This document shows positions 29,830 to 41,035 of a DNA stretch of 64,000 nucleotides, one piece after another; the stretch's first letter is position 1, and each line of letters opens with the position of its first letter. The notes below the pieces were generated by a model. The model did no database searches. It was given only the letters and a program-made list of their open reading frames with translations, and was not told where the DNA came from. Both the position numbers and the translations under genes were made by a program. Source of the DNA: a phage; NCBI GenBank assembly GCA_008273105.1, contig GCA_008273105.1_4080.1; one strand, written 5' to 3'.

Positions 29830-30153
29830 TTACATGTCTTTCTTACGTTTTACATCGTAGTAACGAACTGTAATTTCTTTGTTGATCTCTTCCTCGATGC
29901 GGTGAATAACTTTTTCTTTCGGGTTGAAACCTATTACAGTTTCTTTAATGATCTCCAAGCCCGTGTATTCGCCTTGTGTACCGTAACCGTAAGTAAAGGT
30001 TTCATGTCCCAGGTCTTCCCAGCGGTCACCAATCAATGCAGACACGTAGCATGAGTGGTAAGTATTGCCGTGGCTATCAGTCCACCGATTAACTTTAATG
30101 TCAAAGGAAGTTACAATTTTCATTTCTACTTTCTGGGTAAGGATCATAGCCAT
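29830..30153 (-). CDS. hypothetical early protein (paralog of 35992..36315)
   Basis: Shares RWTDSxGNTYHSC, FTYGY and C-terminal VKRKKD. Confidence 0.55.
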   Translation of the reverse strand: MAMILTQKVEMKIVTSFDIKVNRWTDSHGNTYHSCYVSALIGDRWEDLGHETFTYGYGTQGEYTGLEIIKETVIGFNPKEKVIHRIEEEINKEITVRYYDVKRKKDM

Positions 30154-30493: not shown

Positions 30494-30600
30494 ATTGTCA
30501 AACTATTTTATCAGGGGAGGTTTTCGTATGTCTTACTCCTGGACTACTTAACGGGGAGTTACTTGTTTCGTTCCCCGTCCTGATGTAAAACATTATACGC
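30494..30600 (-). repeat. about 107-bp structured leader repeat (copy 1)
   Basis: Near-identical to 40926-41035; contains hairpin acggggag...ctccccgt and the early promoter -10 region. Confidence 0.7.
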
Positions 30601-35991: not shown

Positions 35992-36315
35992 TTAAAGATC
36001 TTTTTTACGTTTTACATCCTGTACAGTACAATGCAACGGGATAGACAAATCATTACACAAACGAGTAAGGGAGGTTTCAACAGTATCAAGCCCGTCTACT
36101 GATTCCTTTAAGAGATCAAACGCCGTTTGTTGATATGCATCTTCATAGCCATAAGTAAATGATTCAACCGCCAGATCATTCAAACCGTTATCCAGTTCAA
36201 CGCTTACATGACAAGAATGATAAGTATTGCCATATGAATCAGTCCAACGTTTACCGTCAACATTGATTGCATGGATTGCAGCCAGGGAAACGGTGTTGAT
36301 GATAGTTTTAGCCAT
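35992..36315 (-). CDS. hypothetical early protein (paralog of 29830..30153)
   Basis: Shares RWTDSYGNTYHSC, FTYGY, VKRKKD; AAGGAA SD. Confidence 0.55.
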   Translation of the reverse strand: MAKTIINTVSLAAIHAINVDGKRWTDSYGNTYHSCHVSVELDNGLNDLAVESFTYGYEDAYQQTAFDLLKESVDGLDTVETSLTRLCNDLSIPLHCTVQDVKRKKDL

Positions 36316-36619: not shown

Positions 36620-36705
36620 TTTAGTTTCCTTGTAGTGGGGAGAATCATTTCTCCCCTTGATGTAATGTATTATACTTTATTCGATTTACTTTGCAAGTAC
36701 TTTTT

Positions 36706-36933: not shown

Positions 36934-37170
36934 TGTTTTGATTCCTTTGATTTGGAAGGAGAACCGTTTCCCCCTCTCGATGTAAAACATTATACGCTAA
37001 TCTCTTAATCGTGCAAGTACTTTTTATTACTTTTTGCAAAATACTTTAAACGCTCTCAATCGCATTCTAACGACCTTAACGCCACCAGCTAGGGCGATGT
37101 ATCAGATAATCAGTTTAATGCGTTAGAATCGATTCTAGGCGGTGCTGGTGGACTGGAATACTACAGACAC

Positions 37171-37197
37171 AAAAAAGCCCACTGTTTAAGGTGGGCT
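37171..37197 (-). terminator. intrinsic terminator
   Basis: Hairpin agcccacc ttaaacag tgggct followed on minus strand by TTTTTT; identical copy at 37906-37932. Confidence 0.65.
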
Positions 37198-37218
37198 AGT
37201 GATTCAGTACTTTAATTG

Positions 37219-37701
37219 TTATGCTTCAACTTTGCGATGAGCTTCGATCCATTCCTCGCGAGTCATACCGCTTTCTTTGATAGCGTCCAGTACTACCGCA
37301 ATGCAGTTACCGCGTACAGGAATCATATGTTCTTCCCCGTTATCAAGTACTACAGTAACACGTTCTTGAATCCATTTTTTAGGTTTAGATTCTGGCTTAT
37401 CTTCACCATACTTAACCGCCAGGGCTTTATGTGCCATTTCTACAACTACTTCCAGATCCAATCCAGCCACCGCCGCCTGGATACTTTCGATTGTTGCTTG
37501 CAGTTCGGCTTCACGGGCTTTTTTCTGTTCTTCCAGTTCTGCTACCTTTTTGGCTTGCAGTTCTTTAGCTTCACTGTACGCAATGTTAAAATTGTTGCGT
37601 ACTGCTTTCATGGTATCGTTATCCAGGTCAGCCAACAATTCAGCAGCAATAACAGTATCGTTTGAAATCAGTGCTTTCAGGAATGATTTTACATTAGCCA
37701 T
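37219..37701 (-). CDS. H-NS-like nucleoid-associated protein (tentative)
   Basis: Helical charged N-terminal region (AKELQAKKVAELEEQKKAREAELQ); C-terminus VVLDNGEEH...PVRGNC...AIKESGMTREEWI loosely resembles, from memory, the H-NS C-terminal DNA-binding region; start at MANVKSF after GAGGA. Confidence 0.35.
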   Translation of the reverse strand: MANVKSFLKALISNDTVIAAELLADLDNDTMKAVRNNFNIAYSEAKELQAKKVAELEEQKKAREAELQATIESIQAAVAGLDLEVVVEMAHKALAVKYGEDKPESKPKKWIQERVTVVLDNGEEHMIPVRGNCIAVVLDAIKESGMTREEWIEAHRKVEA

Positions 37702-37905
37702 TTTATAAATCCTCAATTAAAGTTTAGTTTACGTTTATTAGTGTATCAAAGTTTTATCGACGTGTCCAGTTTTTCGTTCGACTTACTGGCGGTCTACTTA
37801 GTGCTCCCCGTCTTGATGTAATACATTCTACGCCTTTTTGTGGTAATGTCAACTACTATTTTAAAACTATTTTTAAAGTATGCAGTACTACGATAATACA
37901 AAAAC

Positions 37906-37932
37906 AAAAAAGCCCACTGTTTAAGGTGGGCT
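37906..37932 (-). terminator. intrinsic terminator (second copy)
   Basis: Same hairpin agcccacc...tgggct + T-run downstream of 37950..38249. Confidence 0.65.
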
Positions 37933-37949
37933 AGTGATTCAGTACTATA

Positions 37950-38249
37950 TTATAAACAGTTAATTACTCCGGTGTGCGTTACTTTCTCAGTATCCATAAC
38001 CGTGACCGATCCACGCTTAGTACTTACATCGTAATAAATTGTCGTGCTACCTTTTTCGTCTTCTTCATGGAACGGGCCGCTTTTAAATGCTTCTGGCTGG
38101 ATCTCTAAATCCTTTAAAACAATCTCGCCAGTACTTTCATCTGTCATCGCAACAGTGCACTGAATGAATTTTTCACTACTTACATCTAACGACGCATTAA
38201 CAGCGAAAGAGGAAACAGATAAAGCCAGGGCGATGATTGCAATTTTCAT
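37950..38249 (-). CDS. secreted/periplasmic protein with N-terminal signal peptide
   Basis: MKIAIIALALSVSSFAVNA-SLD: n-region, hydrophobic core and AxA-like cleavage site; AAGGA SD. Confidence 0.55.
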   Translation of the reverse strand: MKIAIIALALSVSSFAVNASLDVSSEKFIQCTVAMTDESTGEIVLKDLEIQPEAFKSGPFHEEDEKGSTTIYYDVSTKRGSVTVMDTEKVTHTGVINCL

Positions 38250-38333
38250 TTGATTATCCTTAGTTACCAGGGGGAACCGCTCCCCCGTGCGATGTAAAAT
38301 ATTGTACAGTACTAAAAACTAATTGCAAGTACT

Positions 38334-38570
38334 TTATGATTTTTTATAAAACATTTCGGCAGTAATATTTTTACCCGTTGGTTGTACTTTATCCAGAATT
38401 TTTTGATGCCCTGGCCGTCCAAATGAATATGATCCGTAAACCGTAAACCAGTAGTTACCCTCAGTGTTTACATGTACAGCACAATAGGGAACGCCCCGCG
38501 ATTCATCACCAATAAAGTGTGATACCGTTCCCGTTACATTAGCAGACGTTGATTTGATTTGTTCAAGCAT
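38334..38570 (-). CDS. hypothetical early protein
   Basis: ORF 78 aa; AAGGAA SD; UTR hairpin gggggaaccgctccccc. Confidence 0.55.
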   Translation of the reverse strand: MLEQIKSTSANVTGTVSHFIGDESRGVPYCAVHVNTEGNYWFTVYGSYSFGRPGHQKILDKVQPTGKNITAEMFYKKS

Positions 38571-38679
38571 TTTCTTATTCCTTAGTTACCAGGGGGAACC
38601 GCTCCCCCTATGCAAAACATTATACGCGTTTAAAAACTAATAGCAAGTATTTTAATAAAAAGTATTTGAAAAATAATTG

Positions 38680-39034: not shown

Positions 39035-39118
39035 TGTATTTTCCTCATTACCAGGGAGAACCATTTCTCCCCTCTATGTAAACTATTATACAGTACTGAA
39101 AACTAATTGCAAGTACTT

Positions 39119-39307
39119 TTAATTAAATTCCATAAAATCATTCTCAACGTGCACAACAATTTGATTGTTTTTAAAGTCCGCAGCGAACTCGATGCAATCA
39201 TAAACCGCTTTTTGTGTTACAATGCTATGAGTACCAATCGGATTAATAGGGGATTGAATTGTTTCAATCTCGTTCCCTTGCTCATTAACAATTAAAATAT
39301 TAAACAT
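39119..39307 (-). CDS. hypothetical early protein
   Basis: ORF 62 aa; AGGAG SD. Confidence 0.5.
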   Translation of the reverse strand: MFNILIVNEQGNEIETIQSPINPIGTHSIVTQKAVYDCIEFAADFKNNQIVVHVENDFMEFN

Positions 39308-39363
39308 CGCTGTTACTCCTGGGTAGTGTTAACTCGATATAAAGTATTATACGCCTTTATTGC

Positions 39364-39567
39364 TTAGTGTCCAGTACTTTTTAAAACATATTCATAAACA
39401 CTACGCACATCATTGATCATCGCCTGGCGGTTAGCAGGTAACGCACCAGGATCGCCACTATCCCAGGCATTGATAAAACTCCCCAAATCATGAAAGATTT
39501 TATTCTGTAAGCCGATTAACTGCAATTCTTTTTCTTCAAGCTCTTTGATACGGTCAATTAAAAGACT
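39364..39567 (-). CDS. hypothetical early protein
   Basis: Start set at MSLLIDRIK after GAGGA. Confidence 0.45.
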   Translation of the reverse strand, partial: SLLIDRIKELEEKELQLIGLQNKIFHDLGSFINAWDSGDPGALPANRQAMINDVRSVYEYVLKSTGH

Positions 39568-40925: not shown

Positions 40926-41035
40926 TTTGTCAAACTATTTTATCAGGGGAGTTTTTCGTGTGCCTTACTCCTGGGCTACTTAACGGGGAGTTACTTATTT
41001 CGTTCCCCGTCCTGATGTAAAACATTATACGCCTT
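40926..41035 (-). repeat. about 107-bp structured leader repeat (copy 2)
   Basis: Near-identical to 30494-30600. Confidence 0.7.

Follow-up and report, generated by a model that had tools for sequence, protein, structure and literature searches.

Escherichia phage PBECO4 gp267, a candidate divergent member of the H-NS superfamily

We propose that gp267 of Escherichia phage PBECO4, annotated in the databases as 'hypothetical protein', is best described as a cryptic variant within the H-NS superfamily, in which an H-NS-like site 2 turn and domain skeleton are combined with a reading loop that is a hybrid of H-NS and MvaT. That the protein has the H-NS-superfamily fold, or is a homologue of its members, we consider probable. 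The wider reading, in which gp267 is a highly divergent, phage-specific variant of this superfamily that binds DNA and counters or replaces host H-NS on the AT-rich genome of the phage, is one towards which we lean as a whole; here we infer both the DNA binding and the role.

The window, the whole 64,000-nt stretch of DNA analysed, is 100% identical to PBECO4, an Asteriusvirus jumbo phage with a genome of 348 kb. The minus-strand open reading frame at 37219-37701 is identical to gp267 (YP_009150581) and encodes 160 amino acids followed by a stop codon; homologues of the protein begin MAN(V)KS. The Shine-Dalgarno sequence GAGGA (37714-37710, minus strand) is followed 8 nt further by the ATG at 37701, in agreement with the reading frame given in a preliminary description of this DNA. 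The neighbours of gp267 are all small minus-strand ORFs without assigned function.

Sequence comparison with H-NS

Standard searches give little indication of function. Scans of gp267 against Pfam, PHROGs and NCBIfam returned sub-threshold noise (DUF3846, Tox-PL-2, RNase_H, head scaffolding), with no match at all in NCBIfam, and the PHROG of the protein, 27871, has no function assigned. None of the curated models considered (Pfam PF00816, PF22470 and PF22055; NCBIfam) reaches its threshold: PF00816 (Histone_HNS) matches none of the 19 family members scanned, PF22055 (MvaT_DBD) gives no match, and PF22470 (Histone_HNS_N) is listed for two family members, with P0027 at 21.5 bits (E = 2e-4) against a cut-off of 24.5. 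Searches of the PDB by sequence, with single-sequence and family profiles, retrieved neither H-NS nor MvaT; the best matches there, Csx15 (E = 0.66) and Ec2ApeA (E = 0.014), are not convincing and were set aside. Among the papers searched, none describes an H-NS-like protein for Asteriusvirus or for phages of the Rak2 type.

One of the weak PHROG matches, to the head scaffolding protein phrog_206 (E = 0.005), would make gp267 a structural or scaffolding protein of the virion. This match spans generic helical sequence, the specific PHROG of the protein is the functionally unassigned 27871, and gp267 is set inside the terminal repeat, amid small early genes whose promoters are of the sigma-70 type, all of which make a virion role extremely improbable.

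The gp267 family is small, comprising 22 clusters in an index of 5.8 billion proteins. An exhaustive profile search of 1.84 billion representatives yielded 20 proteins, about 18 of which look like true relatives, and none of the 20 provides a bridge to annotated H-NS; a second indexed search with a wider alignment added one further member. By tblastn, homologues of gp267 are present in 51 phage records, from jumbo phages of Escherichia, Klebsiella (RaK2, K64-1) and Salmonella (7t3, Munch), and the K64-1 homologue is labelled 'DNA-binding protein' in RefSeq. With E. coli H-NS as the query, the same method matches 4,485 plasmid records; in a collection of 50,697 phage records it matches a single one, and the title of that record names a Salmonella enterica strain instead of a phage. 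Recognisable H-NS homologues are thus common on plasmids and essentially absent from phage records at the sensitivity of tblastn.

We compared a family alignment of 19 sequences (A2), with identities down to 21%, with an alignment (A5) of E. coli H-NS plus nine homologues from plasmids, sharing 35-68% identity and taken from annotated records. With hhalign the two align over 80 columns with a probability of 92.1%, an E-value of 6.3e-7 and a score of 46.8, pairing gp267 residues 72-158 with H-NS residues 59-137, which span the site 2 turn, the linker and the DNA-binding domain. For comparison with the score of 46.8, 400 column shuffles (200 per alignment) gave means of 10-11.5 with a standard deviation of 2 and a maximum of 20.1, and reversed alignments, which preserve composition and helicity, scored 24-25. 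Profile similarity to H-NS-like domains had been named beforehand as a test of the proposal; it is present, at 92% probability and well over these controls.

When the comparison is broken down by region, the signal resolves into site 2 and the C-terminal domain, which are collinear. Residues 72-160 alone give an hhalign probability of 76% and the C-terminal domain alone 8-19% (E = 1e-3), while residues 1-97 alone give 34% and place G80-L-D-L-E on H-NS G69-I-D-P-N-E; residues 1-71 display no profile similarity to H-NS, including its site 1. Within the C-terminal domain the anchor residues have the same spacing in the two proteins, G122-9-G131-14-G145-6-W151-I152 in gp267 and G104-9-G113-14-G127-6-F133-L134 in E. 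coli H-NS, a pattern found once among the 268 stop-free stretches of the window, and both share an NGE motif (gp267 N121-G122-E123, H-NS N103-G104-E105). Pairwise BLASTP of gp267 against E. coli H-NS gives the same register as hhalign, in which NGEE...VRGN...AIKESGMTREEWI of gp267 lies opposite NGET...GQGR...AMDEQGKSLDDFLI of H-NS. The resemblance of the C-terminal part to the H-NS DNA-binding region, which the preliminary description had put forward as a loose one, thus stands on a register-matched alignment and on the fold searches below, with no curated model at threshold.

A comparison of family alignment A3 with an MvaT alignment (A4) was null, at a probability of 0.07%. The MvaT alignment is shallow, its members being at least 68% identical, and hhalign is equally null for MvaT against H-NS, a pair whose relationship is accepted; the result is therefore weak evidence against a relationship of gp267 to MvaT.

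Predicted structure and the putative reading loop

The AlphaFold model of full-length gp267 (pLDDT 74.5) consists of four helices, a linker and a beta-beta-alpha-alpha unit. The N-terminal helical domain, a putative oligomerisation domain (residues 1-97; 37411-37701, minus strand), is modelled with pLDDT values of 66-84 as two short helices (2-12 and 16-24), a 52-residue helix (28-79) and a fourth helix (83-97), and holds 28 charged residues, in keeping with the earlier account of this half as helical and charged. The third and fourth helices are joined by the turn G80-L-D-L-E84 (37450-37464), which hhalign aligns with the G69-I-D-P-N-E74 'site 2' dimerisation turn of H-NS. A flexible linker follows (residues 98-113, YGEDKPESKPKKWIQE; 37363-37410), with low confidence and the lowest block of pLDDT in the model (51). 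The C-terminal part (residues 114-160; 37222-37362) has strands at 114-118 and 124-128, a loop at 129-134 (VRGNCI) and helices at 135-144 and 148-154; we regard it as an H-NS/MvaT-like putative DNA-binding domain.

When residues 98-160 are modelled alone (pLDDT 77), an additional beta bridge appears after the last helix, giving the order beta1-beta2-alpha1-alpha2-(beta3). [quoted passage not shown] The predicted topology of gp267 matches this, as well as the beta-beta-alpha-alpha fold of H-NS.

Searches with the C-terminal model retrieve the same group of proteins. A Foldseek search of 350,542 chains returned nothing significant; H-NS (1hnr) was at rank 3 with the top probability and TM-score of the list, while Foldseek with the full-length model was uninformative. 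Across two independent fold searches with the C-terminal model, covering 48,000-350,000 chains, the DNA-binding domains of MvaT, Ler and H-NS are at the top, which relates the predicted structure to H-NS. All of the structural scores fall under the usual significance thresholds, and each is weak, as is to be expected of a domain of 45 residues; what gives these model-based results weight is that three H-NS-family domains come up in agreement in two independent searches.

These sub-threshold scores could also come from a convergent look-alike, an unrelated coiled-coil early protein, for example a protein-protein adaptor, whose beta-beta-alpha-alpha unit resembles H-NS by chance. Coiled-coil composition can inflate profile scores, with reversed controls of up to 24, the C-terminal domain alone has the low hhalign probability given above, and there are other weak matches, to the Pfam model DUF3846 (E = 0.008) and to Ec2ApeA. 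We consider such convergence improbable, given that the two sub-signals are collinear in the domain order of H-NS and together reach about twice the score of composition-preserving controls, that four anchor residues fall at identical spacing, and that the searches named three different domains of the H-NS family. Homology to H-NS is the reading that we prefer, and the computed layout, a helical N-terminal domain ending in a site 2-like helix-turn-helix, a linker and a predicted domain of H-NS/MvaT/Ler fold, follows that of H-NS.

Conservation within the family draws attention to the loop after the second strand. In the 19 sequences of A2, G131 and N132 are the sole invariant residues besides Met1, and R114, G80, G122, G145 and I152 are each kept in at least 90% of sequences; G69 of H-NS, the counterpart of G80, is likewise invariant in A5. 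The codons of R130-G131-N132 occupy 37306-37314 (minus strand), and the alignments place this loop on Q112-G113-R114, the AT-hook-like motif of H-NS. The position before G131 is variable across the family, so that the consensus is x-G-N. In gp267 the segment MIPVRGNCI stands in place of the TWTGQGRTP core of H-NS, and the glycine alone is retained (G131 = G113); W109, T110, R114 and P116 of H-NS are not. The preliminary description of an H-NS-like nucleoid protein therefore needs amendment: the likeness to H-NS is upheld by profile and fold, and the Q/RGR motif is absent, R-G-N standing in its place, with the curated models under threshold.

The departures from the H-NS motif recall MvaT, in which Gly99 and Asn100 enter the minor groove, with Asn100 replacing the last arginine of Q/RGR and being equivalent to R114 of H-NS, and in which Arg80, from before the hairpin, provides the second arm of an 'AT-pincer' (PMC4466236). 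The gp267 loop combines the length seen in H-NS, two residues longer than that of MvaT, with an MvaT-like final asparagine. The conserved R114 of gp267 lies at the start of beta1 and MvaT R80 three residues before it; R114 may be the counterpart of R80 in an AT-pincer.

The charge of gp267 also differs from that of its proposed relatives. The linker has a net charge of 0, compared with +4 for the H-NS linker, and the linker and C-terminal domain together have a net charge of -3 and a pI of 5.3. The lysines K106, K108 and K109 precede the C-terminal domain, which itself has K143 and K157 only, and a lysine network of the MvaT type is not reproduced. Since the linker and C-terminal domain are together acidic, in contrast to the +4 linker of H-NS and the lysine network of MvaT, strong DNA binding by gp267 is not assured, and we do not file the protein as a strict member of either the H-NS or the MvaT group, because the curated models and the Q/RGR motif were tested and gp267 matches neither.

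The altered loop and the acidic charge lead us to treat DNA binding as putative, and to take seriously the main rival to a counter-silencing role, a decoy or dominant-negative action on H-NS. Under this alternative gp267 would retain the fold of H-NS and a site 2-like interface, would bind DNA poorly through its acidic C-terminal domain and would co-oligomerise with host H-NS or StpA, capping or poisoning the filaments and thus relieving silencing without coating DNA; truncated H-NST and gp5.5 of phage T7 act against H-NS in this manner. By analogy with these proteins such an action is conceivable for gp267, whose site 2 turn is the best-scoring sub-region outside the C-terminal domain, whose Q/RGR motif is altered, whose linker and C-terminal domain combine the net charge of -3 with the absence of the lysine network, and whose probable immediate-early position is typical of anti-host functions. 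Were the DNA-reading loop unused, the conservation of G131-N132 and R114, the strongest in the family, would be difficult to account for; H-NS is itself acidic overall (pI 5.4), and some distant relatives of gp267 have basic C-terminal domains with pI values of 8-9.4. We therefore judge the decoy unlikely, though the strongest of the alternatives, and continue with a DNA-binding variant of H-NS as the favoured reading.

Gene position, expression and proposed action

The gp267 transcription unit has its own predicted signals, all on the minus strand. Promoter P1, TTGACA-N16-TAGAAT (37852-37825), preceded by an A/T-rich UP-like stretch, lies where the preliminary description placed it and matches 11 of 12 scanned positions. 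Promoter-like matches in the region are no commoner than in shuffled sequence (14 and 13.7, respectively), so our assignment of P1 is based on the recurrence of the same layout in paralogous cassettes and at homologous loci. A second, degenerate promoter, P2 (TTGATA-N17-TAAACT; 37749-37721), matches 9 of 12 positions, and the other cassettes have TTGACA-N17-TATAAT in its place (alignment A6). The leader is about 115 nt long from P1; as P2 lies within it, part of the mRNA may have a short leader. The terminator described after the gene is present 22 nt past the stop codon (37197-37166), with a 7-bp stem holding five G-C pairs and an 8-nt loop (AGCCCACCTTAAACAGTGGGCT, 37197-37176) followed by a T-run. 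It is contained in the downstream copy (37158-37214) of a 57-nt direct repeat, D6, whose upstream copy (37893-37949; 93% identity, spacing 735 nt) forms the terminator of the preceding gene, so that the two copies bracket the promoter-leader-gp267 unit.

The leader contains a conserved element of about 37 nt (TAAGTAGACCGCCAGTAAGTCGAACGAAAAACTGGAC; 37800-37764) with a CCAG (37789-37786)/CTGG (37769-37766) stem and a conserved loop, following the pattern TAAGTAGNCC-NNN-AGTAAGNC-NNN-CGAAAANCT. Three copies are present in the window (37764-37800, 30514-30550 and 40946-40982), compared with none in shuffled sequences. Complete copies follow a first hairpin and are flanked by a tandem pair of sigma-70-type promoters; in the gp267 copy this hairpin is truncated and P2 is degenerate (A6). 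The order P1-element-P2 recurs upstream of gp267 homologues of about 31-47% identity in L002, L003 and Salmonella phage 7t3, with a related version in K64-1, and in L002 and L003 the element upstream of the homologue is the sole copy in 11-12 kb. A 106-nt stretch with the element is also 87-98% identical in the unrelated coliphages A73 (Vequintavirinae) and muut (Justusliebigvirus), again between small ORFs, and the region as a whole is rich in repeated promoter/stem-loop cassettes.

The preliminary description had called the leader long and structured; it is long and it is conserved, and a stable RNA structure is to be rejected. The 129-nt leader folds at -14.9 kcal/mol against a shuffle mean of -17.6 (z = +0.96), and the element has no match in Rfam and an RNAalifold consensus energy of just -5.2 kcal/mol. 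The consensus fold is a stem of 4 bp; two of its adjacent pairs are C-G in place of G-C in two of seven sequences, and neither is ever broken. That the element is a cis-regulatory RNA or DNA site, possibly autoregulatory, is only a guess.

The position of the gene suggests when it is expressed. In Asteriusvirus vB_Ec-M-J, whose ends have been determined, the gp267 homologue is the 13th ORF, 6.9 kb inside an annotated direct terminal repeat of 21.5 kb, and is transcribed inward; several other phage records have two copies of the gene, some 6-7 kb from an end. For phage CBB, a relative, a cluster of RpoD-like promoters with UP elements has been reported among short ORFs that are read as early host-takeover genes (PMC5259590). 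Location in the terminal repeat together with a sigma-70-type promoter indicates that gp267 is probably expressed very early, most likely as an immediate-early gene that the RNA polymerase of the host transcribes.

The window has a GC content of 31-39%, far below that of E. coli, which is roughly 51%, and is thus AT-rich DNA of the kind that H-NS targets. With gp267, this AT-rich virus probably has a version of its own of the protein that the host would turn against it. In the action we envisage, gp267 would be made immediately after infection, would self-associate through its N-terminal helices, and would read DNA with its putative R-G-N loop, the counterpart of Q-G-R in H-NS and of G-N in MvaT. 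Its target may be the H-NS-type nucleoprotein that would form in the host on phage DNA of 31-39% GC. The likeliest outcome would be counter-silencing, in which gp267 occupies the phage DNA or joins host H-NS filaments and so leaves phage transcription unsilenced; less likely, the same mechanism would serve to silence host genes or one temporal class among the genes of the phage.

A bolder extension, which we offer as speculative and consider doubtful, would make gp267 an H-NS-derived immediate-early 'viral chromatin' protein of the terminal repeat, with a hybrid R-G-N loop, that coats the AT-rich genome, displaces or remodels host H-NS filaments and perhaps shields the DNA from nucleases, its synthesis being controlled through a leader element that travelled with the gene across genera. 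Virulent jumbo phages of the Rak2/121Q type are not known to have a chimallin nucleus.

Incoming AT-rich DNA is subject to silencing by host H-NS, which phages are known to oppose by means of small inhibitors. If our favoured reading of gp267 as a DNA-binding H-NS variant is true, a phage that supplies its own silencer-like protein would follow a strategy unlike that of these inhibitors, and the H-NS superfamily would gain a form intermediate between the Q/RGR read-out loop of H-NS and the GN loop of MvaT. The hypothesis is directly testable, since these phages grow on E. coli K-12, for which hns genetics are at hand.

Comparison with known systems

The closest parallels are with H-NS, StpA and Sfh of the Enterobacterales (PF22470 and PF00816). 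Shared with these are a helical domain with a long third helix, the site 2 turn in the form G-x-D/S-x-(x)-E leading into helix 4, a linker and the beta-beta-alpha-alpha unit, as well as NGE, the motif G-x-[ST]-x-[DE]-[DE]-[FW]-[LI] and the Gly/Gly/Gly/aromatic spacing. In contrast to them, gp267 has R-G-N (x-G-N in the family) for Q-G-R, a non-basic linker and an N-terminal 70 residues unrelated by sequence, and is encoded by a virulent jumbo phage.

With MvaT and MvaU of Pseudomonas (PF22055; PDB 2MXE/2MXF), gp267 has in common the predicted topology, Gly-Asn at the tip of the (in gp267, putative) DNA-reading loop and a conserved arginine N-terminal of the hairpin (gp267 R114, MvaT R80). It differs from them in the absence of profile similarity, in a loop two residues longer, in the position of R114 within beta1 and in lacking the MvaT lysine network (K81, 83, 97, 102, 105 and 108); the N-terminal layout of MvaT is also simpler than the four helices of gp267. 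Ler (PDB 2LEV), the LEE-encoded H-NS paralogue and counter-silencer, differs from gp267 in keeping the arginine-containing loop VGRQP, in a sequence that searches with H-NS recognise (E = 0.004-0.02), and in being chromosomal and island-encoded.

The setting of the gene resembles the PeSL cassettes of T4-type phages, which are described as repeated promoter/stem-loop/terminator cassettes between small early ORFs (PMC2839356, PMC4122927); the gp267 unit is similarly bracketed by 57-nt repeats, and its cassette also occurs in unrelated coliphages. The PeSL sequence motifs are other than those around gp267.

Phage genomes that carry a homologue of a host silencer of AT-rich DNA have been described, namely the H-NS of phage EPV1 and the Lsr2/CgpS proteins of actinophages and prophages (PMC7074111, PMC3097231). 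Those proteins are readily recognised and belong mostly to temperate phages or prophages, whereas gp267 is a cryptic candidate carried by virulent jumbo phages of Enterobacteria, in their terminal repeat.

Sequence relationships of the gp267 product

The best PDB sequence match of the wider family profile of gp267, the 160-aa ORF proposed to encode a divergent H-NS-like early protein, is Ec2ApeA (9hxd), an antiviral defence protein; the match is weak, with an E-value of 0.014 and a domain E-value of 0.28. It pairs residues 88-160 of gp267 (window 37222-37440, minus strand), which comprise the turn, linker and C-terminal domain, with residues 256-337 of Ec2ApeA, and may be due to chance. When E. 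coli H-NS was used as a tblastn query (E below 1e-3), 4,485 records in the plasmid collection were matched, against only one of the 50,697 records in the phage collection, the title of which names a Salmonella enterica strain.

Genomic setting of gp267

The gp267 gene (window 37219-37701) corresponds to positions 6853-7335 of L014, the record of the related Asteriusvirus vB_Ec-M-J, where it lies within the annotated 21.5-kb direct terminal repeat. Several phage records carry two copies of the gene, each around 6-7 kb from an end, and the part of the window that holds gp267 is probably terminal-repeat sequence in virion DNA. The promoter, leader and gene form a unit that sits between two 57-nt direct repeats (window 37158-37214 and 37893-37949; 93% identical, with a spacing of 735 nt), both of which carry the same terminator hairpin. 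This flanking arrangement suggests that recombination could add or remove the whole unit.

Immediately upstream, a 99-aa protein (window 37950-38249, minus strand) has no Pfam match; it is predicted from its sequence to be probably exported, as its N-terminus (MKIAIIALALSVSSFAVNAS) resembles a signal peptide. Two paralogous 107-aa ORFs (window 35992-36315 and 29830-30153, both minus strand) share the motif RWTDS(Y/H)GNTYHSC(H/Y)VS, carry KRKKD(L/M) at the C-terminus, and are a small duplicated gene family of the early region. The GC skew of the window is negative over positions 1-44,000 and turns positive beyond, a change of sign at around 44 kb that is consistent with a switch in predominant coding strand.

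Promoter cassettes of the early region

An intergenic cassette of around 100 nt, made up in order of promoter P1, a hairpin, a TAAGTAG...AGTAAG...CGAAAA element and promoter P2, occurs on the minus strand at window 30503-30588, 40933-41020 and 37751-37820, and in two other phage sequences (L017:1501-1604 and L018:1501-1606). No Rfam family matched this cassette, which has 105 occurrences across 45 phage records and is 87-98% identical between Asteriusvirus and the unrelated coliphages A73 (Vequintavirinae), muut and EmilieFrey (Justusliebigvirus-type).

Most of the small ORFs are preceded by a repeated early-promoter cassette, in which TTGCAA-N16-TATAAT is followed by TTACAT and a G/C-rich stem-loop in the 5' UTR, for example GGGGGAACCGCTCCCCC; copies lie at window 36632-36704, 36952-37024, 38264-38336, 38579-38654, 39048-39120 and 39337-39381. 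Phage A73 has a near-identical 5' UTR and ribosome-binding site (...CAAAGGAATCAAAACAATGGCTA). These repeated early-promoter and stem-loop cassettes resemble the PeSL (promoter-early stem-loop) cassettes of T4-type phages.
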